Assembly (NCBI GenBank): GCA_002371495.1
Contig: DFIX01000019.1
Coordinates: 30,207-94,206, forward strand
Length of the DNA stretch: 64,000 nt
Direction of reading: 5' to 3'
Source: Eggerthellaceae bacterium UBA3686
Lineage (GTDB): Bacteria > Actinomycetota > Coriobacteriia > Coriobacteriales > Eggerthellaceae
Below, piece by piece: positions 5,665 through 64,000 of the stretch. Positions within the stretch are counted from its first letter, which is position 1, and the number at the start of each line of letters is the position of its first letter. Position numbers and translations under genes: made by a program. The notes beneath the pieces were generated by a model. It did no database searches. It saw nothing but the letters and a program-made list of their open reading frames with translations, and was not told the origin of the DNA.

Positions 5665-5691
5665 ATTAAGGCATTGCAATGCCGGTAAATC

Positions 5692-5973: not shown

Positions 5974-6038
5974 AGGTGTCCCTCCTTCTTTAGGTGAAGC
6001 CGCCTTTTGACGGCTTCACCAAAGTCTATCACAAACTT

Positions 6039-6398: not shown

Positions 6399-6417
6399 TA
6401 AGATCTTCCCCTTTCGA

Positions 6418-8757: not shown

Positions 8758-9150
8758 ACTGTTACTCCTTTTCTCGTTTACCCTCGGAAACAAAGAGACT
8801 TATACGCCGCGACCTTACGGTTGCATCGCTCTGATCGAACCCGATTAGAATCGGCTCTAGGGGTAAGCCAGCACCTTTCGGATACGTCAGACAGCTAATC
8901 GATTTACCTTACCCTCCCGTTTGCTCGCACCAATCGGCAAGTGGCTGGAATGGTGTTTGCATATTTGGCCAGGTAAATGACGAGCAGCCGAAATTCCTCT
9001 TCGCTTCCCTTTTAATACTGCTGGTACCACTCGCAATCTCATTGGTTTCATCTGGGGCAATGAGCGTAGTAATACCAACGTGCCTATTCTAGCAGCATTG
9101 TGAATCTTGGCAAGCAACGTATTTGCTGATGCCTTAATCTATTTTCAGAA

Positions 9151-10078: not shown

Positions 10079-10333
10079 TTACGCGCCGGGGGCCTTGGGG
10101 GCGCCGGGGGCCTTGGGGGCGCCAGGAGCGCCGGGGGCCTTGGGGGCGCCAGGAGCGCCAGCTGCAGGAGCCGCGCCGGGCAGAGGCTTCTCGCCGTTCA
10201 GGTACGGGGTGAAGTCTTCCTTGCAGAACGGGCACTTGTCAAGCGTAATGCCCGCCATCATCTGGATGGGCTTCCCGCATCCAGGGCACTTCATCGGGCC
10301 GCCGCCGCCAGCATCAGATGGTCTAAAGCACAT
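10079..10333 (-). CDS. small zinc-ribbon protein with a C-terminal (A/G)PGAPK repeat tail
   Basis: 84 aa. ATG at 10333 has AAGGAGG 7 nt upstream. CPGCG...CPFC forms a four-Cys ribbon. The tail reads GAAPAAGAPGAPKAPGAPGAPKAPGAPKAPGA. Confidence 0.6.
   Translation of the reverse strand: MCFRPSDAGGGGPMKCPGCGKPIQMMAGITLDKCPFCKEDFTPYLNGEKPLPGAAPAAGAPGAPKAPGAPGAPKAPGAPKAPGA
10083..10160. repeat. imperfect 18/27-nt tandem repeat encoding the PGAPK tail
   Basis: GCGCCGGGGGCCTTGGGG occurs at 10083-10100 and 10101-10118. A 27-nt variant with a GCGCCAGGA insertion follows. Confidence 0.8.
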
Positions 10334-10619: not shown

Positions 10620-10985
10620 GTACGAGCAGCGGCTCTCTGTGTTATTATGCTCTGATGTAGGTTTCGTGAGCGAATGCCTACAAATGAGCGCTTGGCTTAG
10701 GGGTGAAGATTCATCAGGCCTTGCGCATCGTAGAAAGAGAATCGTAGAAAGGAGGATCCCTGCAGTCGTTTCTTCCGTCCCATCGCTTCCACGCGGCGGG
10801 TCCGCTGTTTAGGGGACAGCTTGAATACGGAGGCGTCCGTAAGTCATGAATGCGAATGCGTCCGTGATTTCCCGCCCGCAAGCGCGCAGACGGTATTGCC
10901 ACTGCAGTGAGAGCTGAGGCTCACGGCTTCAAATCAATTGGGGATAGAAGCCGCTTACTTGAATAATCCTTTAAAGGAGGGATTG

Positions 10986-21207: not shown

Positions 21208-22749
21208 CTAGCGCCTCCTGCCGCTCTGGAACTTCAGGCGCTGAGTCACGTACTCGCGAACGAGCAGGATCAGCAAGATGCTCATGACAATCAGATAGCC
21301 CACCACGGCACCCTCGAGCTTCATCATCGTGGTCATGAGGATGAGCACCAGAAGCGAGAACCCGAACGTGATGAGGTACAAGCCCAGCACCACCTGCTGG
21401 CGGCGCAGGATCGTTATGACCTGGTAGAGGAAGTCGATTGCCGCAGTCACGCCGCCGGCAGCGAGCATGATAAACGACAGCTGCTTCATAGGTGCAAAGT
21501 CAAGGCCGTACATGAAGCTCATAATGGGAATGCCGACCCAGTTCATGAACAGTATGCCGACGACCGTGATGCCCACGATGAGCACCATCATGGCTATGAT
21601 CACCATGTCGAAGCGCGCGCGGCGCGACTCGTCCGCCCAAACGTTCGCGAGTTTGACGAGCAGGGGCTTGTAGATCATCCCGACTGTGATGAGAATCGCC
21701 TGCGCCGGGAAGTACAGCGCGTTGAAATAAAGCTGGTTATCGTAGGGCAACGAAGCACCCTGCATGACGAACTTGGGCATGTTGTCGACGAGCGCGTACA
21801 GGAAAAGCGCCGCGAATACGGGAAAGCATTCCGTGAACAGGAGCTTGACCGAGAGCATGTTGGGCGCCGACGAGCGCGGGGTCTCGAACATGGTCAGCGG
21901 GAACGTTGCGAACGCAAGCGTGCATGCGGCGGCGATCGCCATGGCGACGGCCGCTATGCCCAAATCGCCGGTGATGAGCAATGCGACCGTGAAGAGCAGA
22001 AACGCCGCGACCGAGCGCAACGTCAACGAGATGCCGCCTAAATAGAGCTTGTCGACCTGCTGCAAACGGCCCTCGTACACCTCGCCGAGCGCATCGATGG
22101 CCTTGAACGTGAACACGCCCATGCTCATGACGAACATCTCGCCCGTATAGCCCAGGGCATTGCAGATAACGAGCCCGATAAGCAGCATCACAAGGCACGT
22201 GGCCGCACGGTTTATTTGGTAGTCGGCAAACGAATGGTACTCGTCGAGGTCCGATACCTGGTACGTGCGCACGCCGTAGCTCGCCAGTATGTAGAGCAGG
22301 TTGGCGATGACGAAGGCGAACGAGAACATGCCGGCTCGCTCGACGCCGGCCAGCCACGTGACGACGATGGTCAGAAACGGGAAAACCATGCCCCATGCCG
22401 CGAACCCGATGGTGTTCCATACGAAATCGCGCGACGTACGGCCCGATGCATACTCCTCGTCCTGTCCGGCCAAGTTGCCTTCCGACACAGCGCCGACGAG
22501 CCGGTCGAACCAGTCGTTTATGAACTTGCGGACCGGGTTCTGCTTGCGCGGGCGGTCGGCGAACACCGATTCGCGAACCTCTTCCTCGGCTTGGACGGCG
22601 CCCCGCATCGAACGGCCGCGGTCGTGCACGCTTCCGCTGTCGCGCACCGTGGCGTCGGCCATCTGGTAGCGCGAAGACGACCGAGTGCGTACGGCACCGC
22701 GATGCGCGGCGTTCGCATCGGTTCTGCTTTTCCTTACTTCCCTTGCCAT
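21208..22749 (-). CDS. polytopic membrane protein, MOP/Wzx-like oligosaccharide flippase family; N-terminal basic extension, start uncertain
   Basis: About 12-14 hydrophobic segments. The stop abuts the nadE start (21207/21208). The first ~90 aa are Arg-rich and may be upstream of the true start. Confidence 0.55.
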   Translation of the reverse strand: MAREVRKSRTDANAAHRGAVRTRSSSRYQMADATVRDSGSVHDRGRSMRGAVQAEEEVRESVFADRPRKQNPVRKFINDWFDRLVGAVSEGNLAGQDEEYASGRTSRDFVWNTIGFAAWGMVFPFLTIVVTWLAGVERAGMFSFAFVIANLLYILASYGVRTYQVSDLDEYHSFADYQINRAATCLVMLLIGLVICNALGYTGEMFVMSMGVFTFKAIDALGEVYEGRLQQVDKLYLGGISLTLRSVAAFLLFTVALLITGDLGIAAVAMAIAAACTLAFATFPLTMFETPRSSAPNMLSVKLLFTECFPVFAALFLYALVDNMPKFVMQGASLPYDNQLYFNALYFPAQAILITVGMIYKPLLVKLANVWADESRRARFDMVIIAMMVLIVGITVVGILFMNWVGIPIMSFMYGLDFAPMKQLSFIMLAAGGVTAAIDFLYQVITILRRQQVVLGLYLITFGFSLLVLILMTTMMKLEGAVVGYLIVMSILLILLVREYVTQRLKFQSGRRR

Positions 22750-40696: not shown

Positions 40697-42022
40697 CTAC
40701 GCTTCCGAGCTCACGCGGACGGTGCCGCGATGGTTGCGGTACGGAAGCTCGCGGCTGACGTCGGCCCCGAGCGAGCAGAGCTTGCCCACGTAGTTCTCGT
40801 AGCCGCGGTCGATGTGGCCGATCTTGTGGATGCGCGTCTCGCCCTCGGCCACGATGCCCGCCAGCACGAGCGCGGCTCCTGCGCGCAAATCGGTCGAAGA
40901 GACCGGAGCGCCCTGCAGCTTGCGACCGCCGCGCACGATGGCGTGATGGTCCTCGATGACGATCTCGGCGCCCATGCGCGCAAGCTCGGCGGCAAACATG
41001 AAACGGTTCTCGAAGACGTTCTCGGTGATGACCGACGTGCCCTTGGCGCACGCCGCCAGCAACATGAACTGGGCCTGTAAATCGGTAGGGAACCCCGGAT
41101 GCGGCAGGGTCTGTATCTCGACTGGGCGCAACGGCTCGGTGCGGCTGACCGTGACCGAATCGACCGACTCCTCGACGGTGCAGCCCATCTCGCGCAGCTT
41201 CTCGATGGCCATGCGCAGGTACTCGGGACTTATGCCCTTGACGGTCAGCGGACCGCCCGTCAGCGCCCCTCCCGCCAGGAAGGTCCCGGCCTCGATGCGG
41301 TCGCCCACCGTCGTGTGCTCGCAGGCATGCATCGACTCGAGCGGCACGCCCTTTATCGTGATGATCGACGAGCCTGCATCGCTGATGCAGGCGCCCATCG
41401 CGTTGAGCATGTTGGCCAAATCGACGATCTCGGGCTCGCGGGCTGCGTTGGCCATGATCGTGGTTCCTTCGGCGACGACGGCCGCCATCATCAGGTTCTC
41501 GGTGGCGCCAACGCTCGGGAAGTCGAGCACCACGTGCGCGCCTTTCAACCCGTTGGGCGCATCGGCCATGAGGTAGCCGTGATCGATCGAGAACTCGACA
41601 CCCAGCGACTCGAGGCCGCGCAGGTGCATGTCGATCTTGCGCGCACCGATCTGGCATCCGCCTGGCATGGCCACGAAAGCGCGACCGAACCGCCCGATGA
41701 GCGGCCCGAGCACCGAGATGCTCGCGCGCATCTTCGACACCAGCTCGTAAGGCGTCTCGTACGAGTCGACCTCGGTCGTGTCGACGATCAGCGTATGGTC
41801 GTCGTAACCCTTCCCATCGCGCTGGACTTCGGCACCGAGCACTTCGAGCACCTCGCTCATGACTTCGATGTCCGAGATGATAGGCACGTTGTGTATGACG
41901 CACCTGCCCCGCGCCAGAATCGCGGCGGCTATGAGCTTGAGCGCCGAGTTCTTGGCGCCCGCAACTTCAACCGTGCCCGACAACGTGTTGTTGCCGCGCA
42001 CGACGATTATTTCCTTGGCCAT
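40697..42022 (-). CDS. murA: UDP-N-acetylglucosamine 1-carboxyvinyltransferase
   Basis: LSGTVEVAGAKNSALKLIAAAIL and PGGCQIGARKIDMHL (active-site Cys). 441 aa, collinear with MurA. Confidence 0.95.
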   Translation of the reverse strand: MAKEIIVVRGNNTLSGTVEVAGAKNSALKLIAAAILARGRCVIHNVPIISDIEVMSEVLEVLGAEVQRDGKGYDDHTLIVDTTEVDSYETPYELVSKMRASISVLGPLIGRFGRAFVAMPGGCQIGARKIDMHLRGLESLGVEFSIDHGYLMADAPNGLKGAHVVLDFPSVGATENLMMAAVVAEGTTIMANAAREPEIVDLANMLNAMGACISDAGSSIITIKGVPLESMHACEHTTVGDRIEAGTFLAGGALTGGPLTVKGISPEYLRMAIEKLREMGCTVEESVDSVTVSRTEPLRPVEIQTLPHPGFPTDLQAQFMLLAACAKGTSVITENVFENRFMFAAELARMGAEIVIEDHHAIVRGGRKLQGAPVSSTDLRAGAALVLAGIVAEGETRIHKIGHIDRGYENYVGKLCSLGADVSRELPYRNHRGTVRVSSEA

Positions 42023-42411: not shown

Positions 42412-42522
42412 GCGAACGGCCTGGTGGCAGCATGTGTGAGCGATTCTGCAGGCACTGTTCCTGAAAATTCGCATAGGTTTAGCCGAAGCCAAGCGAACAC
42501 GTGCTGCCACCAGGCCGTTCGC
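42412..42522 (-). repeat. hairpin repeat copy C12 (orientation B)
   Basis: Arms GCGAACGGCCTGGTGGCAGCA and TGCTGCCACCAGGCCGTTCGC. The core is nearly identical to the reverse complement of C1. Confidence 0.9.
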
Positions 42523-42632
42523 GGGACGTGGCAAACACGTGCTGCCACCAGGCCGTTCGCGGGACGGCACATGCACATCCACCTGCGCATTCGCGGGACG
42601 TGGCAAACACGTGCTGCCACCAGGCCGTTCGC
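42523..42632. repeat. three tandem solo repeat ends (C12-type, C11-type, C12-type)
   Basis: GGGACGTGGCAAACACGTGCTGCCACCAGGCCGTTCGC occurs at 42523-42560 and again at 42595-42632. GGGACGGCACATGCACATCCACCTGCGCATTCGC lies between them. Confidence 0.85.
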
Positions 42633-42685
42633 GGGACGGCACACAACAAGCTGTTGTTCTTGCGTAGAATGATCACACGGTCTAG

Positions 42686-43522
42686 TTAGCCGATCTCGCG
42701 GACGATTTCGGTGACGAGCTTGCAGAAATCGCCTTGGCGGCGCTGCGCAACCTCGAAGACCTCTTCATCGGAAGGCGATGCCCCTTCGATGCCGCAGGCC
42801 ATGTTCGAGCACAGCGATATGCCGAGCACCCGCATGCCCACGTGGCGTGCCGCGATGACCTCCTCGACCACGCTCATGGCAACCGTATCGGCACCCCACG
42901 CCTTGAAGGCGCGGATCTCGGCCGGCGTCTCGAAGCTCGGGCCGAGCAGACCCAGGTAAACGCCCATCTGAACCGGGATACGCTCGCGATTAGCCACTTT
43001 GGAGGCAATGGTGCGCAGCTCGGGGTCGTACGCGTCCTTCATGCTGAAGAATCTGAACGCGATTTCATCTGGTTCGGTACCCTCGACCGGGTTGCGGCCC
43101 GTGAAATTAATGTGGTCGGTCATGATGCAGAAATCGCCGACGGAATACGATTCGTTTATGGCGCCAGCCGCATTGGTCGTGATGAGCGTGCACACGCCGA
43201 TGCGGTGCATGAGCCAAATCGGAAAGGCAACCTCTTGGGCGGAGTTGCCCTCGTAGCCGTGCAGGCGGCCCTGCATGGCGATGACGCACGCGCCGGCAAG
43301 CTCGCCGCACACGAAGCGACCCACGTGGCTCGTCGCCGTCGAGCGCTTCATGTGGGGAACGTCGCCGAAGGGCACGTACACCGCATCCTGCACCTGTTCG
43401 GCCAAAGGGCCGAGGCCCGAGCCCAGGACGATGCCGATTTTCGGCTTGCGGCCCTGCAGTTTCGACTCCAGAACCTGCGCTGCTTCTTCCAACTGCTCTT
43501 TCAGGGTTTTATGTTCGTTCAT
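42686..43522 (-). CDS. punA: purine nucleoside phosphorylase (trimeric PunA type)
   Basis: IGIVLGSGLG, HVGRFVCGEL, MQGRLHGYEG and TNAAGAIN. Confidence 0.85.
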   Translation of the reverse strand: MNEHKTLKEQLEEAAQVLESKLQGRKPKIGIVLGSGLGPLAEQVQDAVYVPFGDVPHMKRSTATSHVGRFVCGELAGACVIAMQGRLHGYEGNSAQEVAFPIWLMHRIGVCTLITTNAAGAINESYSVGDFCIMTDHINFTGRNPVEGTEPDEIAFRFFSMKDAYDPELRTIASKVANRERIPVQMGVYLGLLGPSFETPAEIRAFKAWGADTVAMSVVEEVIAARHVGMRVLGISLCSNMACGIEGASPSDEEVFEVAQRRQGDFCKLVTEIVREIG

Positions 43523-48555: not shown

Positions 48556-49656
48556 TTAGGCTTTCCTCACATACACGCTGTAATACCCAGCAGCATCCTT
48601 CACGGTCGTGGTCATGCGCTGTTCTTCGCGATACCCCAAGCTCGCAAGCAGGTCGGTCCAGCTCGGCGCCGTAATGCCGTTGTAGTAGTCGCTAAGGTTC
48701 GACCCTCTTCTCGTGACGACGTTGCCTTGGGCGTCGACGTACTTGTAGCCGTTCGCGGTCAACGTGGCGTAACCGAACTGATCGAGTATGGGATAGTTGG
48801 CGGATTGAGCGTACGTCATCGTCACGGCGGGACTGTACAGCGCTATATCAGGCGACGCCTTCGTGCCGTAGCTTCCGCCCTTGAGCAGGATGCGCGCATT
48901 CTTCGAGGCAATGTTTACGCCGCACCCGTAATGCATGAACTGGCCCCTGTAGTTGTTGGCGCCCGCACGCACCCACGGATTGCCCGTCGCGTAAAGCCTC
49001 GAGCTACCGAAGAGCGCCACGCCGTTGCCGATGCTTTGCACCTTGCTCTTGCCTTGCAAGTAGCATTTCGCATTGCCGTACAGCATGATGGCAGAGGTGA
49101 TATCCGAGCGGAACTCGGTAGCATTGTCCACGACGCTGCCGCTTTTCAGGTAGAACTTGCCCTTGCCTTGCACGACGACGGCCGCAGTCTCGGTGGAGTA
49201 CAGAATGCCCTTGCCCTTTTTGTTGGACGTCTTCAGCACGACGGTGCCCTTCTTGATGTAAAGCGGGCTTACCGTACGCAGGGGCACGCCCTTGTATGCG
49301 GTCTTCACCTTCTTGCCGTTCAGGTCGATGGTGTACTTCTTGTTCTTGGATATGGTCAGGTAGTATTTCTCGCTCGGCAACGTGATGTTTCTCATGACCT
49401 TGAAGTTGCCGCCCTTGTATTTCGATATGTTTCTCCACTGAGTTGCGGTCCTGATCTTTATGACCTTCGTCTTCTTCGCCTGGGTCTTGACGGAAACCGC
49501 CTTCTCGGCCGGGGCCGCGGCAGCAGAGCCGGCTTTCAGGCTTGCAGCCAATGCAGGCGCCGGGAAGGCGAATGAAAGGCAAAGCGCAAGACAGGCCAGC
49601 GCGGCAACCCCAATACCTATGACTCTTGCAGATAACACCCTTGTCCGTGAAGCCAT
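48556..49656 (-). CDS. secreted Lys-rich protein, hypothetical (possible beta-helix)
   Basis: Signal peptide IGIGVAALACLALCLSFAFPAPALAAS. Repeated G-x-x-K/Y-L-x-G-x-S turns (GKGKFYLKSGS, GNAKCYLQGKS, NARILLKGGS). Sample line is 48% GC. Confidence 0.7.
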   Translation of the reverse strand: MASRTRVLSARVIGIGVAALACLALCLSFAFPAPALAASLKAGSAAAAPAEKAVSVKTQAKKTKVIKIRTATQWRNISKYKGGNFKVMRNITLPSEKYYLTISKNKKYTIDLNGKKVKTAYKGVPLRTVSPLYIKKGTVVLKTSNKKGKGILYSTETAAVVVQGKGKFYLKSGSVVDNATEFRSDITSAIMLYGNAKCYLQGKSKVQSIGNGVALFGSSRLYATGNPWVRAGANNYRGQFMHYGCGVNIASKNARILLKGGSYGTKASPDIALYSPAVTMTYAQSANYPILDQFGYATLTANGYKYVDAQGNVVTRRGSNLSDYYNGITAPSWTDLLASLGYREEQRMTTTVKDAAGYYSVYVRKA

Positions 49657-53341: not shown

Positions 53342-56300
53342 TCAGCGTACGCTTACCTTCACTTTCTTGTACACGCCGTTATGGGCGTAGGCGTACACGT
53401 AGCAGGCGCCTCGTCCGACGCCCCTGATCTTGCCCTCGCCGTTGACGCTCGCCACCGAGGCGTTGGTGCTCAGGTAGCGCAGCGTGGCGGCATGCGCCTC
53501 GGACATGAGCTCCTTGCGCTTGTCGAGCTTGACGACACGCGCCTTCAGCTGGAACGTGCGGCCTTTCGCAAGCGATATGCTGGTCCTGTTCACCGAAACG
53601 CCCTTTGCGTTGGTGCAGTACCTGGTGCTGCCAGAGGTGTAGGCATGCACGAGGGAGCTTGTTTTCACGTAGACCTTCTTAGTTCCCACGATGACGTAGG
53701 CCCTCACACGTGCCTTGTAAGCCGTGCCGGCCCTGAAGCCCGCCTTCTTCCACGAAAGCGTAGAGCCGGCCTTCACGGTTGCGACCTTCTTGGGATACAG
53801 CACCTTGCCGTCGTGGTTGCACCGCGAGAGCATGACGTCATAGCCGTCGGCTCCGGCGACCTCGTTCCAGCTTATGGCCAGGCCGCGATTGCCCCGGGCT
53901 TTGATCTTCGCGAGCAGCGCGGCGTACTTCCTTGCCTTCGACGCGTACGTCGCCTTGTAGGTGGTCGGTTTGGTTACCTTCTTGACAGCGGGCGCCCATC
54001 CCTTGAAGGTGTAGGCGCGAAGCGCGCTGGCGGCACGCTTCGGGGTCTTGCCCGTGTACGTGGGCATTTGCCCGTAGGCGACTTCCGCGCTTTGCAGCAC
54101 GGTGCCGTCGTAGTTGACGAACTTCACCGTGTACTTGTTCACGGTCTCGGCGAACAGCGGCCGGTAGGTCGTGACCGAGCCCTCCACGATGCCGCCGTCC
54201 CAGCCGGCGAACTTGTAGGAGTACTTCACCGTGGCATGTTTAACAGGAGTTTTCCCATCGTAGGCGGGAGGCTTCTGTCCTTCGACGTAGGTTTTCTCCT
54301 GCAGCAAGGTCCCGTCGCCGTCGAGCCACCTTACGGTGGGAATCCCCTTGATGGCAAAGTCGCCCTTGGCCACGGCCACATCGTAGTTTTTATTGGCAAC
54401 GTACACGGCATCGAGCACGCCTCTGTAGGTGCCGGGCGCTTCGTCGCTGTTCGTGCGGACGTAGCGGACCTCGCCCAGGTCGCCTTCGGCCACGAGCCCC
54501 TCCACCGAGCCAGTGAAGGCCGGGTCGGCCGTGCCTTGGACTTTTGAAGCGCTATTAACCGTGATCGTGGCTTTGGCTGCCCCGATCGTGAGCGCGCCCG
54601 GCACGTAGACGATGGCGTAGTCGTCCTCCACTCTGCTCGAGCCTCTCGTAACGGCGGCATTGCCCGCAGTCAGATCGTAGCTGCCGACATCCTTCCCCTG
54701 GCCGTTGAGCACGACGCTCACGAGCACGTCTCCTTCCCGCAAGCCCTCGACCTTGACCTTTTCGGCAATCTCGGCTGGATCTTCGTAGACCGTGTCACCC
54801 TCTCCCTGGGTTTGTCCGTTGTAGGTGAAAGGCTGCGGCAAGGCCGTTATCGTGAGCCGGGGCTTGGGCGAGACGTGCGCAAAGATGTCGGCCTTGTCCT
54901 GTACGCAAATCATTTGCTTTGCTGCGGACGGGTCGGGGTCCCAGACCGGCTTCACCCCGACGGCGGTGTAGCCATCGAAGCGGTAGCCCTCGGCAACGGT
55001 TGTCTTTATATTCAGGTAGCCGCCGTCGCGTGCGATCACCGTGTTGGGCGCGCCCGCAACCGGTTCTCCACCGCTGAGCTCGACGTCGTTGAAATCGGCA
55101 TAGGCGGGATCCTTCGTCAGGCTGACGGTGCAGAAGTCGAACACGGCAGTGGCCGCGTTCTCCTTCCCGTAATTGATGTACGCGGCGGCTTTCGGATACC
55201 CGGGCGAGGCAAACTGAAGCATGTAGTCACCCTGAGGAAGCTGTCCCGGTCCCGTTCCCGGTGCGGATGCGTACGATGGGTCGAAGACGTATATGCCATG
55301 CTTGTATTCGATAGGAACCGAAAACGTCGCGCCGTCCTGAACCAGCGTGAAACAATCCTTCAAGTCCTCCTGCGGCGCGCCGTCCTTCGTCACCGTGACG
55401 ACGATCTGGCCGTTGTACACCCACTCAGCGGTTATGACCGAGTTGGCTACGTTCCCGTCAGCGTCGGGCGCGCCGCACAGGTTGCAGTACTCCTCGCCGT
55501 CCTCGTAGAACGATCCGAACCCGGTGCCGAACCACCCGTGCAACGTCATCCCGCCGGAATCCCAGCCGAAATCGCTGTCGGAATAAGGATAGAGCCTGAC
55601 GGGTCGGTCGAAGTACGCCGTCTGGATGTGCTTCTGACTCCCCGCATCGTCCGACCAGTACTCGATCGTGTAGGGCTTCCCCCACCACTGCGCGTAGAGC
55701 GTCACCGCACCGCCGTCCTTTGTCAGGCCCTGCACCTCTTCCTTGTCGGCGTAAGGCGTCCCCGTGCCGTCCGCCTTGGAGTTCCAGCCCGTGAACTCAT
55801 ACCCGGGCAGGAAGTATCCGTTCGTGCTGAGCGCCTTCGTCTCGTCGTAGGCAAAGCTCTGATCCTCCATGGTCCCCGAACACGCCGTGGACGCGCTCGC
55901 CGGCACGTTGGCGTCGAAGCACACGGAGTAGTTGGGGTTCTTGATGGTGAAATCGCCCTTGACCACGCTCACGTCGTAATTCGGATTGGCGGCGTACACG
56001 GCGTCGAGCACGCCTCTGTAGGTGCCTTGCGCCTCGTCATCGTTCGTGCGGACGTAGCGGACCTCGCCCAGATCGCCCACGTCCACGAGCCCCTCCGCCG
56101 TGCCGGTAAAGATTGGGTCTGGCTCGCCCTGGGCTTTGGAAGCGCTCTCGACCGTGATGGTCGCCAGCTTCGGCGTTATCCGAAACTCCACTGGGCACGT
56201 GCCCATACAACCGGGCCCGATGCCCGTCACCGTACCGTGCGCCGTGCCCACATTCCTGTTGTCCTGCCATGTAACCGTGTAGTCCCTGCCCTGCACAAGC

Positions 56301-58984
56301 TGGGCTTCGCCCACCGACACCTTCAGCGCAGGCGCGATATCCGCACCCGTGAACGTTTGATCGGATACCGCCTCTACCGTAGCCTGGGAGATGTCAGCCT
56401 GAACGATCTTGAAGCTGGCCTCCTTCGAGCCCGTAAGCCACGCGCAGTCTTTCACGGGCGTGAGCGTCATCGTGGCCGCGCCCACGTCCGTGTTGTTCTC
56501 ATACCCATCTGAATCGACCTTGTAGTCCACGCCCAAGTCGAGCGGCACGGTATATTCCTTGCCGCCGCGGTCGAGCAGCATCACCTCGCTGGGAACCGGC
56601 GTCACCGCTTGGCCCGTATACACCTGGTCGGGTACTTTCACCTGCGTTTTATCCAGATCGGCTGGTTTGATGGTAAACGTGAAGGTCTTCTTGCCCTGGA
56701 AGTTGCCCTTGCCCTCTATCGTGATCGTCGCCTTATCGCTCGCCATCTTGTTGTGCTCGTATCCGGCGATCGTGTAATCCCGGTCCTTTATGAGATTGTA
56801 TATATGACCGCTGTTGTCCGGCACGTCTTGCAGGAAGTCATATGCTCCGAGCCGTGCATAGAAACCGGGATCGGGTTCCCAATTCCTGTTGTCCCAGACG
56901 CAGGCAGGCGAGATATCCATCATCTGCACGCCGTCCATGTTCGACTTGACGATTTCGTATTCGATGATCCGGTACCCCGTGAAATAGGGGGCGTTGCCTG
57001 TCACCACGACCTTCTGCGTACCCACCGACGTGCAGTCATAACCCAGCAACGGCTCTACCGTGAGATTGCCGTCCTCGCCCCCGACAGGATCGGTCCTCAA
57101 CCAACGCGTAGCGGTCACTTCGGGGATGGCCTGCTCGCCGGTCCAGTTCTCGACGGCACTCCAGTTCAGCTTGACGTCGTTTGCCTCCTTGGTATGCGTT
57201 GCCTCGTCGCCGATGGCGACCGGCACGTATTCCCGGTCGCTTGCGGGAAGCGCTATGGGATAGAACTGCGGATCGCCGAGGATATGGGGCTCGAACCAGG
57301 AGTAATCCGCGGTCGACCCGTACGTGACCTTGAACTTGAACGTGTCTCTGGCCTGGTTGACTATCCATCGTTCAAAGAAATCGCTATCCGAGGGAGGCTT
57401 GAAGGCACCGCTCGAATTCGGCATCCGCATGGCCTTGATGGCCATGTGCTTGCCGTGATCGCAGCTGAATGCCTGCGCATCGATGTTTTGCAGCGAGTCG
57501 GACAGATTCACGGTTTCGAGCTTGAGGCAGTTGTAGAAAGCGTGGTGCCCAATGGTCGTAACGCCTTCGGGCAACGTTACCTCCGTCAAGCTCGTGCACC
57601 CGCTGAACGCTTCGCTTTCGATGGTGCTGAGCGATGTCGTGTTGAAGCTGACGCTCGAAAGCGAAGTGCACCCCTTGAACGCGCTCGAGCAAAGCTCTTT
57701 CACGCTGGCTGGAAACTCTATTTTCTTCAGGGCAGTACATCCCTTGAAGGCCTCGCTGCCGATGTGGTTGATTTTCGTATCGCTCGGAAACCTCACCTCG
57801 GTGAGCAACGTTTTGTCCAGAGCGGCAAAGTCGGCTATTCTCGTGACCGAGCGATACCCTATTTTCGCGGGCACCGTCACGGCCCTGTGCTTGGACGAGG
57901 GGACGATGCGGTTGATCGCGATGGCATCGCCGCCCTGGGTGACGAAATAGGTCATATACGCCATGCCCTTCGTCCAGCCGGCGTATTTCATGTCGGACTC
58001 GGACGGGTCGACGCCTGCATCATGTGTGGGAAAGATCATCAACTCGAGGGCGCTGCAGCCTTCGAACACATCGGATTTCTGCACTTGCGGGAGCGCCTTG
58101 CCATAGACCACGACCTTGAGCGACGTGCAGTTCGCAAACGCCTTATCGCCGATCGCGCCAACATGGTCGGGCAAACACACTTCTTCGAGAGCGGCGCACC
58201 CGTCAAAGGCGTGCAAGCTTATGATCGAGATGTCCGAACCCCTGAACCGAAGGGAGGCGACGCTCTTGCAGTTAGAGAACGCGTACAACCCTATCCACTG
58301 CAAGGAAGCCGGCAGCTCGAGGCTCTCGAGCGATTCGCAGTTCAGAAACGCGTTGATCCCGATGTGGTCCAGCTTGCTGGCCGGCGGGATGTTGGCTTGT
58401 TTGAGGCTTGTGCAATCGGCGAACGCGTCGTTCCCGATCGTTCCGACGCTCGCGGGGATATCCACCGCTTCGAGCGCCGTGCAACCCTGGAAGCAAGACG
58501 TCGGGATCACGCCGAGCTCCTCCACTGCCGTGAGGTCCACGTACGTCAGGCTCGTGCAGTTCTCGAACGCATTTTCGCCCAGGCTAACCACCGACGAGGG
58601 GAAGGTCACTTTGGTAATCTGCGTATTGCCCTTGAAGACCTCGTTGGCGACTCCTCCCACGCGATGGCCGTCTATGGTCTCGGGAATGTTTATTTGGGTG
58701 ACGCCGTCTTTTAGGGCGTAGCCGGTAATGGTGGCATCTCCGGACAGGTCCTCTACGTAGGTCCACGTCACGTCCGGATCGGCCGCGGCCGCTATCCGCC
58801 CCGTCGTCAAGGGAGGTTCCGCTGCCGCAGCAGTCAGCCTAAGCGCCGGTGCGCCAAGCGCGAGCAGCACTAAGAGCACCATGCCAACGATGGCCAGCAG
58901 AAACCGGCTACCGCCTCGCGGGAGGCGAGCTGGCGCTTCGGCTCCGTTTCTCTTTGCTGGGCACAGGACAAACAACGTGCTCAT
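53342..58984 (-). CDS. giant (1880-aa) cell-surface protein: signal/anchor, BspA-type LRRs, MBG domains, Listeria-Bacteroides (Flg_new) repeats, FN3, C-terminal Big_2
   Basis: N-terminal hydrophobic segment FLLAIVGMVLLVLLALGAPAL. Many LRR_5 units (e.g. IPASVGTIGNDAFADCTSLKQANI). Two MBG-like units (...GEVRYVRTN(D/S)DEA.GTYRGVLDAVY.AN.NYDV...). Flg_new-like units (GYEFTGWNSKADGTGTPY...VTLYAQW). Big_2-like end (VSVNRTSISLAKGRTFQLKARV...). No LPxTG. Confidence 0.85.
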   Translation of the reverse strand: MSTLFVLCPAKRNGAEAPARLPRGGSRFLLAIVGMVLLVLLALGAPALRLTAAAAEPPLTTGRIAAAADPDVTWTYVEDLSGDATITGYALKDGVTQINIPETIDGHRVGGVANEVFKGNTQITKVTFPSSVVSLGENAFENCTSLTYVDLTAVEELGVIPTSCFQGCTALEAVDIPASVGTIGNDAFADCTSLKQANIPPASKLDHIGINAFLNCESLESLELPASLQWIGLYAFSNCKSVASLRFRGSDISIISLHAFDGCAALEEVCLPDHVGAIGDKAFANCTSLKVVVYGKALPQVQKSDVFEGCSALELMIFPTHDAGVDPSESDMKYAGWTKGMAYMTYFVTQGGDAIAINRIVPSSKHRAVTVPAKIGYRSVTRIADFAALDKTLLTEVRFPSDTKINHIGSEAFKGCTALKKIEFPASVKELCSSAFKGCTSLSSVSFNTTSLSTIESEAFSGCTSLTEVTLPEGVTTIGHHAFYNCLKLETVNLSDSLQNIDAQAFSCDHGKHMAIKAMRMPNSSGAFKPPSDSDFFERWIVNQARDTFKFKVTYGSTADYSWFEPHILGDPQFYPIALPASDREYVPVAIGDEATHTKEANDVKLNWSAVENWTGEQAIPEVTATRWLRTDPVGGEDGNLTVEPLLGYDCTSVGTQKVVVTGNAPYFTGYRIIEYEIVKSNMDGVQMMDISPACVWDNRNWEPDPGFYARLGAYDFLQDVPDNSGHIYNLIKDRDYTIAGYEHNKMASDKATITIEGKGNFQGKKTFTFTIKPADLDKTQVKVPDQVYTGQAVTPVPSEVMLLDRGGKEYTVPLDLGVDYKVDSDGYENNTDVGAATMTLTPVKDCAWLTGSKEASFKIVQADISQATVEAVSDQTFTGADIAPALKVSVGEAQLVQGRDYTVTWQDNRNVGTAHGTVTGIGPGCMGTCPVEFRITPKLATITVESASKAQGEPDPIFTGTAEGLVDVGDLGEVRYVRTNDDEAQGTYRGVLDAVYAANPNYDVSVVKGDFTIKNPNYSVCFDANVPASASTACSGTMEDQSFAYDETKALSTNGYFLPGYEFTGWNSKADGTGTPYADKEEVQGLTKDGGAVTLYAQWWGKPYTIEYWSDDAGSQKHIQTAYFDRPVRLYPYSDSDFGWDSGGMTLHGWFGTGFGSFYEDGEEYCNLCGAPDADGNVANSVITAEWVYNGQIVVTVTKDGAPQEDLKDCFTLVQDGATFSVPIEYKHGIYVFDPSYASAPGTGPGQLPQGDYMLQFASPGYPKAAAYINYGKENAATAVFDFCTVSLTKDPAYADFNDVELSGGEPVAGAPNTVIARDGGYLNIKTTVAEGYRFDGYTAVGVKPVWDPDPSAAKQMICVQDKADIFAHVSPKPRLTITALPQPFTYNGQTQGEGDTVYEDPAEIAEKVKVEGLREGDVLVSVVLNGQGKDVGSYDLTAGNAAVTRGSSRVEDDYAIVYVPGALTIGAAKATITVNSASKVQGTADPAFTGSVEGLVAEGDLGEVRYVRTNSDEAPGTYRGVLDAVYVANKNYDVAVAKGDFAIKGIPTVRWLDGDGTLLQEKTYVEGQKPPAYDGKTPVKHATVKYSYKFAGWDGGIVEGSVTTYRPLFAETVNKYTVKFVNYDGTVLQSAEVAYGQMPTYTGKTPKRAASALRAYTFKGWAPAVKKVTKPTTYKATYASKARKYAALLAKIKARGNRGLAISWNEVAGADGYDVMLSRCNHDGKVLYPKKVATVKAGSTLSWKKAGFRAGTAYKARVRAYVIVGTKKVYVKTSSLVHAYTSGSTRYCTNAKGVSVNRTSISLAKGRTFQLKARVVKLDKRKELMSEAHAATLRYLSTNASVASVNGEGKIRGVGRGACYVYAYAHNGVYKKVKVSVR

Positions 58985-58987
58985 CGC

Positions 58988-61900
58988 TTACACCTCCTCG
59001 CCTTCCTGTGCGCTGCGGACTTCGCGCTCGTTAAGCAGACGGCGGGCCGAGTAGCCGGCGGCGAGGGCGGCCGCGCCGGCCGCCGCAAGGGCAAACGGTC
59101 CCAGCGGCGCCAGTTCGTCGCCCGTTTTCGGGCTGTTTCCCCTGGTCTCGACCGTGCCGCCACCCGAGCCTCCGCCCGAGCCGCCACCCGTGCCGCCACC
59201 GCCATCGTCCTTGTCATCCGGGTCGTCCGGGTTATCAGGCTCATCCGGGTCGTCCGGGTCATCGGGGCTCGGCGTGGTGCTCACCTGCTCTGCCGGGTCG
59301 TACACCGCACCCTTGCCCTGAGCGCTGTTCACAATCGAAACACCCCCCTGTTTGGCCACGTAATAGTGATGCACGCCGTCTGCAAGGGCACGCACCACAA
59401 GGCCGTTCTCCTCCACGGTGAAGTCGACGGGCACAGTCTCCATCGCGGCTTGCGCCCGCAAACCGGGAGCCGTCATCTTCGGCGTCCAGGCATTGGCTAT
59501 GCGCAAGATAATGGTCTTGTCTCCTTCCCAATTACTGGGAATCTTGAACTCAGCCGGATACGAGATCTTCTTGCCGGGCATCAACATGCCCTTCTTCTCT
59601 TCGGCGGAAAGCTGCGGGGTTTCCGACGCCGTGTGTCCCCAGCCCATATGAGCTGCGGTAAGCGCTATCTTCGACGGCTCGATCTCGCCCACCTGCACCG
59701 TGTCGACCACCTTTCCGCCATCGTCGGGGTCGAGCATCTGCACTTCGAAGCCGCCGATGATGAGGTTTCCGTGATTGCGGATGTCCATCGAGAACGACGC
59801 GGTGTGGCCGGCGCACACGAAGGCAACCGTCGGCACGAAGGCCTCGATCTCCGCCGACAGGACGTTGGGCACGCCGATGTAATGAATGTCTGCCAGACTT
59901 TTGTCCGCGTCGGTGATGTGGGTGGCTACGAACGCGCTCGTCTCGTCTTCCAGGCTCAGGACCTCGAAATGGTCGATGGGATGGTCAACTTCGCAGAAGG
60001 GGAAGTCCTCGCAGAACTTACCGTTCATCAGCCGCGATGCCATGATATGGCGTATGGTGTCGTCGCCTGTCCCGGTAACGGTGCTGCTCGTGAAAGTGGC
60101 CTTGGGGTTGCTGTCCTTCCTGTCGCGGTACGCCTCGTAGTAGAAAAGGTAATCGCCGCTGGGGCTGACGCAGAACGATGCGCCCTTGATCCCCGCCGCG
60201 TCCACCTGCTGTGCGGTGAAGCGCTTCTGGTCTTTCGCAAGCGGATCGAACGAACCCTGGTACAGATGGTAATCGGTCTCGGAGGACTTCTGCGAGGACG
60301 GGCGCTCCTTGACGTACAGGAACGTCCCGTGCTGTGGCCAGGGCTGTATTTCGGGCAGCTTGTCCGCGCTCTCGATGCAATGCGTTATCTTGAGCTGGCT
60401 GAAATCGCCGCCTGGCGGGATGGTCGCCGTGCACACGTCGTAGCCCTGCTGATGATTCACCAGAAGGGTGAGCAGCGCATCGTATTTCTCTGCGACCGCA
60501 TTGCCTGCCACGCCGGTCATGCCGAACACGTCGGCGGCCAGCGTCACGCTGGGATCTTCCTTCAAATCCTTCGGGAACGACAGGTAATCGCCGCGCATGT
60601 AGCAATGCCCCACGCAGAACGTAACCGAAGCGCCGGTCGATGCCAGCCCGTTCGCGCTGCCGGAGCTGCGGCGCAAGAAAGCGTAGGCCAAGGAGCCGCT
60701 TGCGCCGTGGGGTGCGAACCCGTCGACGATGCACGGGCTGCACACCATGTGCTCCTCGTTCTCGTTGAACGCGAGCTTGGCGTCGGTTTTGTCGTTCGCG
60801 CTCACGCCGCGCACCATGACTTCGAGCACTTCGAGGTTTGCGTTGATGGCCAGAACCGCGACGGTGCACTGGGAAGCAGCTTGGTGGAAGGACGTGCTAT
60901 CGCCTTCAGGACGCAAGCCGCCGGTGACGATGAGGCAGGCCTCGGCGTCTTGGGCCCACTTCTTGCTGCCCGAACGGACCACGATGTCGAACTCGTAGTC
61001 GTATATCTTTATGCGCGGCAGGTCGCGGTTGCCCGTGCCGTATTCGAGGACCTTCGGCTCGCCCCACGTTTGCGTCGCATCGTCGAACCTCGACCCCACC
61101 ACGCGGCTGCGGCAATAGCTTCCGCCCTCGGCTTCGGGATACTTGACGGTCGCCACGCGGAACAGGTAGAGCGCGCCGCCTATGGAAACCACGCGCTGAC
61201 GCGGATCGCTGTGGATACCCTTGTAGATGATGGAGTTCACCTTGGGAACGACGCCGTCGTGCAGCCCAACGCCCCCGACACCCGCAGGCCCGCACGGCTC
61301 GCCGGTGGTCTTGCCGGCCACGACGTCGTATTCGTATTCCCGCGGCACGCCCAGCGCGAAGCCGAGCAGCGGATCGCCCTCGAAGCGGGAAGCGCTCCGC
61401 ACGTCTATCGTCGCAGCCATGAGCGCTGTGGCGGCAGCGCCGGCGTTAGGGCCTGAAGCCCCGGCAGCTGCCGGCGCGTCGCCCGAGCTGCTGGCGGGAG
61501 CGAGCGCCGCGATCGTGTCGGATGTCATCTCGCCGAAATAGAACGTGTTGGCGCCTTCGCAATCTACCAGCTCGGTGGTTATCTCGCCGTCCTCGCCCAC
61601 CACGGCCTTGGGCATCTTGCCCACGAACGCATAGGTCGGCGCGCCCACGCCCGCCACGTTGGCTTCGCGCCTGAAAACCCCGGTTACGCCGTCGACCGGC
61701 ACGAAATGAGCGCTGTGGGTTGCCTTGAAGGCTTCGAACTCGTCATCGGTAAGCGCGCTCACGTCAAGCGCGCTCGCGTCGTTTCCGCCGGACTTGCGCG
61801 CATCCGCCTCGCGCGAGCCCGTCATCATGGCATCGGTAGTCGCAACCGCATCGGCAAAGGGGTCTTCGAGGTTGCCCTTCAAGAGGGTCCCTTCGTTGTC

Positions 61901-63952
61901 GAAGATGTGCGAATGGCGCAACGTCCCGTCCTTCTGCGTCAGCCTGAACCGTGGCGGGATGCCTTCCCAGGCATCGTCGCCCGTCAGCGCATCCGCAACC
62001 GCTCCCTTCGTCTCCCAGCTATCGTACCAACCGGGGTCCGAGTAGCTATAGATCTGCCCCGAAAGCTTGAACAGCAGCACCTGAAGCACGACCTCCAAAA
62101 GGATGGTGACGCCGACGGTGGTGTGCGGGTCGGTATTGTCGTCGCCGCCCTTCTCCTTCCATCCGAAATAGATGGGAAACGCAAAGGAGGCGTCGAACGA
62201 GAGCGAGAAAAGGCCCCGGTAGCCGATGCCCAAGCTGACCGCGAGGATGAACTTCAGGAACAGGCCCGCAGACATGTTCACATTCCAGCCCATCTTGGCA
62301 AAGTCGATTTCCTTCACGGTCCTTTCCGACTTATACGCCCCCGCCACGTTGAAGCAGCCCAGGGCGGTCATGCCGAGCGTTACCGACAGGTATGCGGGGA
62401 ACGGCCCGAGCGTGAATTCCTGGGTGATGGTGCCGGAGATGCTGAAGCCGAGCTCCACCGTGCCTTCGCCCGAAAAGCTGCTCCAATCCTTGCCGAACCC
62501 ATCCCAATTGAGGAGAAGCGCCAAGCGGAAAATGATGTTGAGGTCGCAGTTGAGGAAGGGCTTGGAAGCCCCCTTGGCCTGCGGCATCTTGTCGTTTTCG
62601 TCGCCAGGGGCGTGCACCTCCTGCATCTCGACCTCTTTGCCGGCATTCTTCTTCGTTTCCAGATCTTCCTGTTTCCTGGCGAGCTCGTTGCGGAAACGGC
62701 TGAGCATATTTCCCTTGTGGTCTTTCTTCCAGTTGTCCTTGGGAGCCCAGCCGCCTTCGTCGGCGACCATCCGCACATCGGTTCCAAAGCCGATGGAGGT
62801 CGTCACGATCGTGGTCGAGATCTGCACCGGGGGAAACACATCCAGCACGGTGAAGCCCAACCCGTTGAAGCACGGCCACTTCTTCTTGTCTTGGGCCTCC
62901 GTCTTGAAGCTGAACGCGGCATTCGGGTTCGTGGTGAGGGGCAGGATGGGCTTTCCGACCGTCGCCTCGTCGAACGGCGTATCCTCGATGAGCATCTCGA
63001 GGTCATTCTGATACGATTTGCCCCCATAGGTCAGCGTGATGCGTATGATGACGTCGTCCTTTGTAATGCAATCAGCATGCCGGGCGTTCAGGAAATAACC
63101 CTCGAACGTGCACGTGGCCAGCCCCGATTTGGAATCGTAGCTCGCAGTGACGCTCCGCTTCTTCAGCACCACCGTTTTCTTGTCTGCGGCATCGAGGACC
63201 TCCATCGACACTCCCACATCGGATACCGCGCCCTTTATGCGCACGGCTATGACGTGCTTGTCCTCGTTCACCTTGCTGCGCAGGAACGTGAGCTTGGAGT
63301 AGTGGATGTCCCAGTCGTCGAACGTGCAGCGCTCCATGTACACGTCGGCAGAATCGGCCTTGTGCGTGCCGATGATGTAGCCGTAGGATCCTTCCAGGCA
63401 CACGCGGCCGGTCGAGAAGTCGCGCATCTTCACGCGCGCATCCTCGGTGGTCACGCCCATCTCGCAATTTGCGCGGTAGACGCCGTCGGTGCCGAGCGTC
63501 GGGAACGCAAGCTCCCGGATCGAGAGGATAACCTTGCCCTCCTCGTCGGTCTGGCCCGATACCGTCTTGCCGTTATAGAGCGAATTCAGGGTGACGGTGG
63601 CGTTTTCGACGGGTTTTGCCTTGTCCTGGATTTCCTTTTCGTCGAGATTCGACAAACCCGACACATCCAGTATCTGGATGCCGACCTCATCGGCGCCGAC
63701 CACCTTGAACGAAAACGAGCCGGACCATATGTTGTTGCTCGCGGCGTAGGCGCGCTGAGCGCCGAGTTGGCCAACGCCTGCGAAGAGCACGCCGCCGCGC
63801 TCCTTGGGAAGCATCATCATGCCAGCCGCCGCGAGCGCCGATGCGAAAAGGCCGCCGAGCATCGCGCGGCGCGACAGCATGGGCAAGCCCGTCGCCTCGT
63901 TTATCGAAGGCTCCTCGGATGCCGGCTCGGGCGGGCTAGCTTTAAACGCCAC
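58988..63952 (-). CDS. giant (at least 1654-aa) secreted protein with a twin-arginine-type leader and a C-terminal SPKTG sorting signal; start uncertain
   Basis: LSRRAMLGGLFASALAAAG...AQRAYAAS (Tat-like). The C-terminus has D/P- and G-rich linkers, then SPKTGD (59117-59134), a hydrophobic stretch and RR. The frame stays open upstream to the window edge (64000). The track start is GTG 63952; an ATG at 63880 directly precedes the RR motif. Confidence 0.8.
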   Translation of the reverse strand: MAFKASPPEPASEEPSINEATGLPMLSRRAMLGGLFASALAAAGMMMLPKERGGVLFAGVGQLGAQRAYAASNNIWSGSFSFKVVGADEVGIQILDVSGLSNLDEKEIQDKAKPVENATVTLNSLYNGKTVSGQTDEEGKVILSIRELAFPTLGTDGVYRANCEMGVTTEDARVKMRDFSTGRVCLEGSYGYIIGTHKADSADVYMERCTFDDWDIHYSKLTFLRSKVNEDKHVIAVRIKGAVSDVGVSMEVLDAADKKTVVLKKRSVTASYDSKSGLATCTFEGYFLNARHADCITKDDVIIRITLTYGGKSYQNDLEMLIEDTPFDEATVGKPILPLTTNPNAAFSFKTEAQDKKKWPCFNGLGFTVLDVFPPVQISTTIVTTSIGFGTDVRMVADEGGWAPKDNWKKDHKGNMLSRFRNELARKQEDLETKKNAGKEVEMQEVHAPGDENDKMPQAKGASKPFLNCDLNIIFRLALLLNWDGFGKDWSSFSGEGTVELGFSISGTITQEFTLGPFPAYLSVTLGMTALGCFNVAGAYKSERTVKEIDFAKMGWNVNMSAGLFLKFILAVSLGIGYRGLFSLSFDASFAFPIYFGWKEKGGDDNTDPHTTVGVTILLEVVLQVLLFKLSGQIYSYSDPGWYDSWETKGAVADALTGDDAWEGIPPRFRLTQKDGTLRHSHIFDNEGTLLKGNLEDPFADAVATTDAMMTGSREADARKSGGNDASALDVSALTDDEFEAFKATHSAHFVPVDGVTGVFRREANVAGVGAPTYAFVGKMPKAVVGEDGEITTELVDCEGANTFYFGEMTSDTIAALAPASSSGDAPAAAGASGPNAGAAATALMAATIDVRSASRFEGDPLLGFALGVPREYEYDVVAGKTTGEPCGPAGVGGVGLHDGVVPKVNSIIYKGIHSDPRQRVVSIGGALYLFRVATVKYPEAEGGSYCRSRVVGSRFDDATQTWGEPKVLEYGTGNRDLPRIKIYDYEFDIVVRSGSKKWAQDAEACLIVTGGLRPEGDSTSFHQAASQCTVAVLAINANLEVLEVMVRGVSANDKTDAKLAFNENEEHMVCSPCIVDGFAPHGASGSLAYAFLRRSSGSANGLASTGASVTFCVGHCYMRGDYLSFPKDLKEDPSVTLAADVFGMTGVAGNAVAEKYDALLTLLVNHQQGYDVCTATIPPGGDFSQLKITHCIESADKLPEIQPWPQHGTFLYVKERPSSQKSSETDYHLYQGSFDPLAKDQKRFTAQQVDAAGIKGASFCVSPSGDYLFYYEAYRDRKDSNPKATFTSSTVTGTGDDTIRHIMASRLMNGKFCEDFPFCEVDHPIDHFEVLSLEDETSAFVATHITDADKSLADIHYIGVPNVLSAEIEAFVPTVAFVCAGHTASFSMDIRNHGNLIIGGFEVQMLDPDDGGKVVDTVQVGEIEPSKIALTAAHMGWGHTASETPQLSAEEKKGMLMPGKKISYPAEFKIPSNWEGDKTIILRIANAWTPKMTAPGLRAQAAMETVPVDFTVEENGLVVRALADGVHHYYVAKQGGVSIVNSAQGKGAVYDPAEQVSTTPSPDDPDDPDEPDNPDDPDDKDDGGGGTGGGSGGGSGGGTVETRGNSPKTGDELAPLGPFALAAAGAAALAAGYSARRLLNEREVRSAQEGEEV

Positions 63953-64000
63953 GTCGATTGGCCCGAAATCGTCATCTTCAAACAGCGGATCAGCGAAATA

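Follow-up and report, generated by a model that had tools for sequence, protein, structure and literature searches.

A giant cell-surface protein of Coriobacteriia with a predicted twin-arginine leader and a sortase-type sorting signal

A 64,000-nucleotide stretch of the genome of Eggerthellaceae bacterium UBA3686 (contig DFIX01000019.1, positions 30,207 to 94,206; hereafter the window) ends, on its minus strand, in a gene for a protein of 1,673 amino acids (aa) and ~175 kDa. The protein is best read as a giant surface protein that is exported by the twin-arginine translocation (Tat) pathway and processed by a sortase, that belongs to a Coriobacteriia-wide family and that is probably an adhesin or scaffold under the control of an extracytoplasmic function (ECF) sigma factor; we give this reading a probability of roughly 0.68. 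It is based on two terminal signals, in which R44, R45, D1628, Y1650, R1653 and R1654 are invariant among homologues down to 23% identity, and hence these features are not due to chance.

The coding sequence occupies the following interval:

58988..64000, minus strand: coding sequence of the giant protein, of which the window holds 1,670 codons and the stop codon (58988-58990).

The reading frame is open from this stop codon to the window edge at 64000, as the first-pass annotation had it. The full gene (L001 5348-10345) was obtained from contig L001, which encodes the 99%-identical homologue P0001. Position 5357 of L001 corresponds to the first base of the window in reverse complement, while the gene begins at L001 5348; the true start is therefore an ATG located 9 nt past the window edge, and M-A-T precedes the window's YFADPL. 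On L001, a ribosome-binding site (GAAAGGA) lies 5 nt upstream of this ATG and the stop codon of the preceding gene 13 nt before it. Since the ATG falls 9 nt outside the window, the twin arginines (RR) are residues 47-48 of the 1,673-aa protein; the numbering of the open reading frame (ORF) used here counts from the window edge and makes them R44 and R45. An internal ATG at 63880 was considered as a start and rejected: the 43 residues upstream of it are conserved as protein, the upstream ATG has the better-placed ribosome-binding site and homologue P0012 has no methionine at this position.

An indexed search gave 18 relatives of 1,537-1,670 aa, all without Pfam domains, and when the indexed search was repeated with an alignment no relatives beyond the same 18 proteins were obtained. 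An exhaustive profile search with residues 470-830 retrieved 190 clusters (50% identity) at E<=1e-3, of which 111 passed E<=1e-10. Almost all of the 190 are 1,400-1,800 aa long and are matched at the same relative position. In species-representative genomes more than 570 loci were found, nearly all of them in Collinsella (about 25% identity) and the others in Atopobiaceae, Slackia and unclassified Coriobacteriales. Judged by sequence, the proteins appear to constitute a fixed-architecture family of giant cell-surface proteins distributed across the class Coriobacteriia. No curated family model was found, as Pfam and NCBIfam scans of the full protein gave nothing above cut-off; this agrees with the first-pass view that most of the protein is without an assigned family.

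The N-terminal leader is composed of four segments:

63881..64000, minus strand: acidic N-terminal extension (n-region), (MAT)YFADPLFEDDDFGPID...GLP, before the twin-arginine motif.
63857..63877, minus strand: twin-arginine motif L-S-R-R-A-M-L, with the RR codons at 63866-63871; MLSRRAMLGG starts from 63880.
63809..63865, minus strand: hydrophobic region (h-region) of the leader, AMLGGLFASALAAAGMMML, aa 46-64, with a Kyte-Doolittle mean of 1.81 over 19 residues.
63743..63808, minus strand: conserved spacer PKERGGVLFAGVGQLGAQR, ending in A-Y-A at 63743-63751.

Among 140 full-length representatives of the family, 131 have RR followed by a hydrophobic stretch, with the consensus [ILV]-[ST]-R-R-x-F-[LVFI]. 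The position directly before RR is S in 92 and T in 33 of these 131 proteins (125 together), the +2 position is F in 106 and the +3 position is L, V, F or I. An A-x-A motif is present in 125 of the 131, at a median of 31 residues past RR, and is directly followed by D or E in 76 family members. In the spacer, the 18 homologues all keep P65, G69 and A86, and nearly all keep A84; signal-peptidase cleavage is predicted after A86. An uncleaved N-terminal signal anchor was also considered and is unlikely, given that A-x-A, with D/E behind it, is conserved. When family N-termini were scanned alone with profile hidden Markov models (HMMs), TIGR01409 (TAT_signal_seq) was the top model with matches in 12 of 30 (best E 5.4e-4), and PF10518 matched 7 of 30 (best E 2.5e-4). 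The leader had been described as Tat-like from the window alone, and this description is borne out far more strongly at the level of the family (131/140 for the motif, 125/131 for A-x-A).

The acidic extension is translated, since the pattern MATY.A.P..DDD.GPID is kept at the protein level in P0001-P0009 and P0012, down to 46% identity. The n-region varies in length across the family, with RR at positions 2 to 69 (median 16.5), and a Collinsella protein begins M-L-D-R-R-S-L-L, so that the long acidic extension is specific to a clade. An upstream start that makes RR internal had been named as a test of the Tat assignment: RR does turn out to lie well inside the protein, but with the motif, the h-region and A-x-A all conserved, the sequence continues to look like a Tat leader, one that has a long n-region. 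KER charges split the hydrophobic region of the window leader, which appears to be a divergent instance of the family Tat leader. We conclude that the family probably uses Tat leaders and that this gene would inherit one. Tat use in Coriobacteriia is known from the molybdoenzymes of Eggerthellaceae.

The C-terminus ends in three further segments:

59117..59134, minus strand: sorting motif S-P-K-T-G-D, in which SPKTG is aa 1623-1627 and L is replaced by S.
59051..59113, minus strand: A/G-rich C-terminal transmembrane helix LAPLGPFALAAAGAAALAAGY, column identity 0.69; Y1650 is invariant.
58991..59050, minus strand: cytoplasmic tail SARRLLNEREVRSAQEGEEV, with the family motif S-x-R-R-x-x-N-E-R-E and then acidic residues.

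The linkers, SPKTGD, hydrophobic segment, RR and 18-residue tail that had been noted at the first pass are all present where it placed them; the 18 residues run from R1653 to V1670, of which the 16 after RR are net acidic. Besides the leader, the protein has this single C-terminal transmembrane helix and no other membrane helices, as expected for Tat tail-anchored proteins. The column identities of the pentapeptide in the 18 homologues are 0.22, 0.67, 0.61, 0.89 and 0.78, and that of the following D (D1628) is 1.0. In 117 representatives, position 1 is most often L (51, 44%), followed by T (19), A (9), I (8), V (7) and S (6, 5%), with P found once; position 2 is P in 88 and A in 29, position 4 is T in 103 (88%), position 5 is G in 91 (78%) and position 6 is D in 111 (95%). 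The family motif is thus x-[P/A]-x-T-G-D. Family C-termini scanned alone, the last 60 residues of the window protein among them, were matched by PF00746 (Gram_pos_anchor) in 12 of 30 cases (best E 1.3e-6) and by TIGR01167 (LPXTG_anchor) in 8 of 30. These data support the window C-terminus as a tripartite signal of the type expected for sortase substrates.

SPKTG is among the motifs cleaved by Clostridioides difficile SrtB (PMC4155245, PMC5569036), and the first-pass annotation had assigned the signal to this (S/P)PxTG type. According to this explanation, the motif would be the substrate of a dedicated sortase with SrtB-like specificity, and it can be said in its favor that SPKTG is literally a SrtB motif (PMC4155245, PMC5569036) and is also found in the two closest homologues. 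The assignment did not hold up on comparison across the family: position 1 is the least conserved, with 22% identity in the 18 homologues, and S accounts for just 6 and P for 1 of the 117 representatives. The motif shifts to GPKTG and TPRTG already within 73-80% identity, and to GAKTG, GAGTG, VAKMG, SAKTG and TPKTG at 58-66%; APGTG, APRTG, LPKTA, LPQTS, AAKTG and LPNTG are also found among the 18 homologues, and the genome scan showed LAGTGD in Collinsella homologues. Moreover, the lineage is Coriobacteriia and not Clostridia, and a sortase gene adjoins none of the loci examined. We therefore regard a SrtB-like enzyme as extremely improbable, and SPKTG appears to be one drift state of an LPxTG/LAxTG-type signal. 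LAxTG is the motif of actinobacterial class E sortases (PMC5148588). Two downstream surface proteins of one related locus carry HPATGD and SPSAGD, which indicates that the relaxed first motif position is a habit of the lineage.

From the observed sequence features, their conservation and the gene order, we infer Tat dependence, sortase cleavage, the class of the sortase and an adhesive role. The precursor would carry a long Tat signal peptide made up of the acidic n-extension, S-R-R-A-M-L, the A/G-rich h-region, the spacer and A-Y-A, and would be exported by the twin-arginine translocase. The A/G-rich C-terminal helix would hold the protein transiently in the membrane, with the RR-plus-acidic tail in the cytoplasm. 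The leader would be cleaved after A-Y-A, and a sortase would cut S-P-K-T-G between T and G and join the protein to peptidoglycan; this sortase would most likely be a housekeeping (class E-like) actinobacterial enzyme with little selectivity at position 1. The protein would then display, in order, two macroglobulin-like sandwiches, a long-strand beta module, a beta-propeller, an Ig-like domain and a D/P-G stalk. The giant gene would be co-transcribed with a BspA-type leucine-rich-repeat (LRR) gene. In this clade its cluster, which keeps to a single strand, also includes PrsW, small membrane proteins with two helices and an ECF sigma factor. The most likely role is that of a regulated adhesin or surface scaffold.

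Several points weigh against this interpretation. In the window protein A-Y-A follows RR by 41 residues, the widest gap in the family; RR stands 46 residues from the protein start; the window motif SRRAML carries M where the consensus has F; and the window N-terminus matches neither TIGR01409 nor PF10518 at E<=1. Distant family members with leaders of the general secretion (Sec) type exist. To our knowledge, a passenger of ~175 kDa is at or above the size of the largest Tat cargoes known. At the other end, no LPXTG HMM matches the full-length window protein at E<=1, and homologue P0010 is without T-G, as AKKDD replaces xPxTG. It is also odd that conservation in a tail which a sortase would discard exceeds that of the whole protein. 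In the 64-kb window, no tatA/tatC or sortase gene turned up among the genes scanned, and none lay within 10 kb of the giant gene in eight related loci (L001-L005, L086-L088). Finally, the adhesive role is deduced from fold types and neighboring genes only.

Part of these points could be accounted for if the leader were a Sec-type signal peptide or a signal anchor, its two arginines being ordinary n-region charge in an Arg-rich, high-GC genome. The missing consensus F and the lack of a Tat HMM match at the window N-terminus would fit, as would the fairly hydrophobic h-region (Kyte-Doolittle 1.81) and the fact that arginine is favored over lysine at high GC (PMC10924467). Plain Sec leaders (MKKILTVLLLVALL...) do occur in a few distant members, among them P0131 and one other representative from the exhaustive search, which have short Lys/Arg-rich tails (VPVTGD...IRKKKEKK) and probably come from Firmicutes. 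Elsewhere, then, Sec apparently exports a passenger of this same architecture, which can hence be exported unfolded. Charge alone, however, would not fix S/T at -1 (125/131) or F at +2 (106/131). RR is invariant in the 18-sequence alignment (and in 131 of the 131 representatives, which were selected for it), the +3 position is hydrophobic and the pattern as a whole is the Tat consensus. A Sec leader is therefore considered very unlikely.

The tail bears on a second explanation, in which the protein is exported, by Tat or otherwise, and is not cut by a sortase, but stays in the membrane as a tail-anchored protein whose helix and tail are functional. The tail may then contact a partner in the membrane or cytoplasm, and xPxTGD would be a relic or serve another purpose. 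The main support comes from the tail itself: the column identity of aa 1651-1662 is 0.77 compared to 0.60 for the whole protein, and Y1650, R1653 and R1654 are invariant in the 18 homologues. The tail is also long (median 17 aa in the 140 representatives) and acidic after RR, whereas canonical LPATGD substrates in the same Collinsella loci have a short RRRNR end. Position 1 of the pentapeptide is free, P0010 has lost the motif as described above, and Tat-inserted tail anchors are an established class (PMC10924467). On the other hand, T (88%), G (78%) and D (95%) are retained just before the helix in 117 representatives, for which a plain anchor would give no reason, and an LPXTG anchor HMM matches 12 of 30 C-termini. 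A proline/glycine stalk upstream of the motif, as present here, is typical of wall-spanning sortase substrates. We thus consider permanent tail anchoring unlikely and favor sortase processing, although the explanation deserves more weight than a Sec leader.

The architecture of the passenger was studied with AlphaFold2 (AF2), which was run with the 18-sequence alignment in two parts. The model of aa 86-860 had an overall predicted local distance difference test score (pLDDT) of 60, and that of aa 871-1600 a pLDDT of 72.5 and a predicted template-modelling score (pTM) of 0.72. The following regions were distinguished, from the N- to the C-terminus:

62981..63688, minus strand: two tandem beta-sandwiches, macroglobulin (MG)/CarboxypepD_reg-like, aa 105-340, pLDDT about 70-89.
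62021..62551, minus strand: module of seven long amphipathic beta-strands (19-26 residues), aa 484-660, strands from AF2.
61511..62020, minus strand: conserved, poorly modelled region (PRFRLTQxDGxxRH ... MPKAVVxxDGxIxTELVDCEGxNTFYF).
61391..61510, minus strand: variable low-complexity linker, A/S/G-rich, column identity 0.38.
59891..61279, minus strand: beta-propeller-like all-beta domain, aa ~908-1370, which holds the SPSGDYLFYYEAY string.
59486..59863, minus strand: Ig-like beta-sandwich, aa ~1380-1505, strands from AF2; this is the unit called CARDB-like at the first pass.
59135..59281, minus strand: D/P-rich and then G-rich stalk with tandem repeats, column identity 0.26.

Foldseek matched the N-terminal sandwiches to the pilin SpaA, A2ML1 and complement MG domains. 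HMM matches were weak: 11 of the 18 members had one to bMG3 and 10 had one to CarboxypepD_reg (E=0.09 on the window protein). After the sandwiches, the model shows a poorly modelled stretch with one long helix and then the seven strands. The propeller region is the best-conserved large region (column identity 0.69), and the top Foldseek matches of the C-terminal part were sialidase, integrin-alpha and DPP8/9 propellers, with E-values of 3e-9 to 1e-5 but low TM-scores of 0.2-0.38; the propeller and the Ig-like domain were matched together as one architecture. The earlier domain guesses agree with the AF2 models as regards the sandwiches, the propeller and the Ig-like unit, but their HMM backing is weak, and neither PD40 nor CARDB had an HMM match in the family scans. 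The A/S/G-rich linker is replaced in P0014-P0016 by a long acidic insert. The stalk consists of a D/P-rich 9-nt repeat in 6.1 copies (59205-59267) and a G-rich 12-nt repeat in 4.1 copies (59152-59200). Compared with P0001, which is 99% identical, the window protein has 8 aa more in its G-rich linker, which shows that stalk length varies between near-identical strains, presumably by repeat slippage.

The seven-strand module is the family-defining core and is the stretch to which most remote members in the exhaustive search were matched (profile positions about 6-205). Two internal hydrophobic stretches (aa 574-602 and 625-651) fall within it and were considered as transmembrane helices. This was rejected on the basis of the strands seen in AF2 and of the family-averaged hydropathy, which alternates with a period of 2 in this region; the hydrophobic peaks therefore represent amphipathic strands and not membrane helices. 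Foldseek searches of the N-terminal model against PDB and BFVD gave no fold match for the module, and when profiles of the entire family and of the mid-region were run against PDB sequences, only noise came up (colicin E1 at E 0.059, the rest at E>0.4). An inverse-autotransporter match of the N-terminal part (Foldseek probability 0.63, TM 0.10) was too weak to trust. It may be speculated that the module is a membrane-active or lipid-binding, barrel-like unit and that the retained tail couples the protein to the small membrane proteins, PrsW and the ECF sigma factor, so that the whole would be a sensor or effector exported by Tat in the folded state. We consider this a long shot; if true, the protein would be one of the largest Tat cargoes known.

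The gene downstream of the giant gene is the following:

53342..58984, minus strand: gene for a 1,880-aa surface protein of the BspA-type LRR / MBG_2 / Flg_new / Big_2 kind, 3 nt after the stop codon of the giant gene.

This gene appears to be translationally coupled to the giant gene, and pairing with a giant LRR or Flg_new protein was also found in five other loci (L002-L005, L086/L087). In this strain the LRR protein ends in a Big_2 domain and has no C-terminal anchor. The P0006 loci encode a counterpart (L002 14980-20379) that has HPATGD, a helix and YSFKRNERRD at its end; between strains, the anchor has been lost or exchanged. Just past window position 64000, related contigs carry a cluster upstream of the giant gene and on the same strand (L001 2419-5334). 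It begins with an ECF sigma factor, whose stop is overlapped by a two-helix membrane protein of 122 aa. Then come a polytopic protein of 217 aa, an intramembrane protease of the PrsW family and, with 121 aa, a paralogue of the 122-aa protein. The 121-aa and 122-aa proteins both start with MRST[DE]ERM, have no Pfam match and look like candidate anti-sigma factors. The gene order is kept in relatives down to 35% identity, and is not kept in the P0018 loci or in that of Collinsella aerofaciens, where a LuxR-type regulator and a two-component system stand ahead of the giant gene. PrsW was considered as a dedicated sorting enzyme and rejected, as the Collinsella and P0018 loci lack the PrsW/ECF cluster and yet keep the same signal.

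The rest of the window is occupied by housekeeping genes, among them those for PrmC, RF1, a thioredoxin-reductase-like protein, NrdD/NrdG, MurA, an LCP protein, Lgt and EF-G. A second BspA-type LRR protein of 760 aa (2848-5130, minus strand) is followed by a VWA-like DUF2201 protein (1171-2838, minus strand) and a MoxR-like AAA ATPase (1-1146, minus strand) that is cut by the window edge. The stretch 4001-6400 has a GC content of 0.51, compared to about 0.60 elsewhere, and contains only short, doubtful ORFs; it separates the LRR gene from a gene for a molybdopterin oxidoreductase (6418-8793, minus strand), an enzyme whose called N-terminus is without a twin-arginine leader. Perfect 18-nt and 27-nt GC-rich tandem repeats (GCGCCGGGGGCCTTGGGG...) were found at 10083-10159, with no confident gene call, upstream of a gene for an MFS transporter (10938-12707). 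A 38-nt unit is repeated 3.9 times in tandem with 76% matches at 42496-42638, between a MurA-like gene (40697-42022) and a gene of the purine/uridine phosphorylase family (42686-43522). Two proteins had no Pfam match: one of 366 aa with a signal-peptide-like N-terminus (48556-49656, minus strand) and one of 513 aa that ends in a hydrophobic helix and RRR (21208-22749, minus strand). Scanning the window for Rfam families and tRNAs gave no match.

Collinsella is a common genus of the human gut. If the proposed route is correct, Tat-dependent sortase substrates would extend from soil actinomycetes to Coriobacteriia, including this genus, and their cargoes would reach about 175 kDa, testing the size limit of the Tat translocase. 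The family, widespread with its roughly 190 clusters at 50% identity but without a Pfam or NCBIfam model, also offers giant surface proteins as candidates for adhesion to host or matrix, and the x-[P/A]-x-T-G-D variants can serve as a natural series for probing the specificity of Coriobacteriia sortases.

In 2024, a search for Tat-dependent tail-anchored proteins was reported, before which no natural Tat-dependent sortase substrates had been described (PMC10924467). The Tat leaders and C-terminal helices of four predicted Streptomyces sortase substrates were verified by reporter fusions, and it was suggested that such substrates may be plentiful among actinobacteria; Coriobacteriia are not mentioned (PMC10924467). 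The combination of Tat export and sortase anchoring, which had been called unusual at the first pass, can therefore no longer be regarded as such: the route is already of a known kind, and the present family is a new, very large case of it.

The closest parallels include the SCO1860-family LAETG proteins and the LPXTG proteins of Streptomyces (PMC10924467), which belong to the same phylum and, like the window protein, have a Tat leader and, behind a motif of the LPxTG/LAxTG type, one A/G-rich helix at the C-terminus. A long n-region, which can hide the leader from predictors, was noted for SCO1860 as well (PMC10924467). These proteins, annotated as peptidases and HtaA-domain proteins, appear to be of ordinary size with short basic RRRxx tails, whereas the window protein is of ~175 kDa and has a conserved 18-residue tail of RR plus acidic residues, a relaxed first motif position and a passenger family without a Pfam or NCBIfam model. 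The substrates of the class E sortases SrtE1/2 of Streptomyces (PMC5148588) are likewise actinobacterial, and the A of their LAxTG motif is found at position 2 in 29 of 117 family representatives; the window protein has P at position 2 and S at position 1, while the LAGTGD of Collinsella fits. The substrates of C. difficile SrtB (CD2831, CD3392 and others; PMC4155245, PMC5569036) share the identical SPKTG and a tripartite signal. They differ in coming from another phylum and in having a Sec leader, as opposed to the Tat leader and long acidic tail of the window protein, whose S is not conserved in orthologues.

BspA-type LRR and Listeria-Bacteroides-repeat (Flg_new) adhesins of the gut are giant multi-domain surface proteins as well, but the window protein is without LRR or Flg_new repeats and has a core of beta module and propeller. 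In haloarchaea, Tat substrates with PGF-CTERM signals are processed by an archaeosortase, which also combines folded export with processing at a tripartite C-terminal signal; this case differs in the domain of life, in the unrelated enzyme and in the lipid anchor used in place of a link to peptidoglycan. Even in this company the present protein is still unusual in its ~175-kDa size, its well-conserved cytoplasmic tail (YSxRRxxNERE) and its seven-strand beta module.

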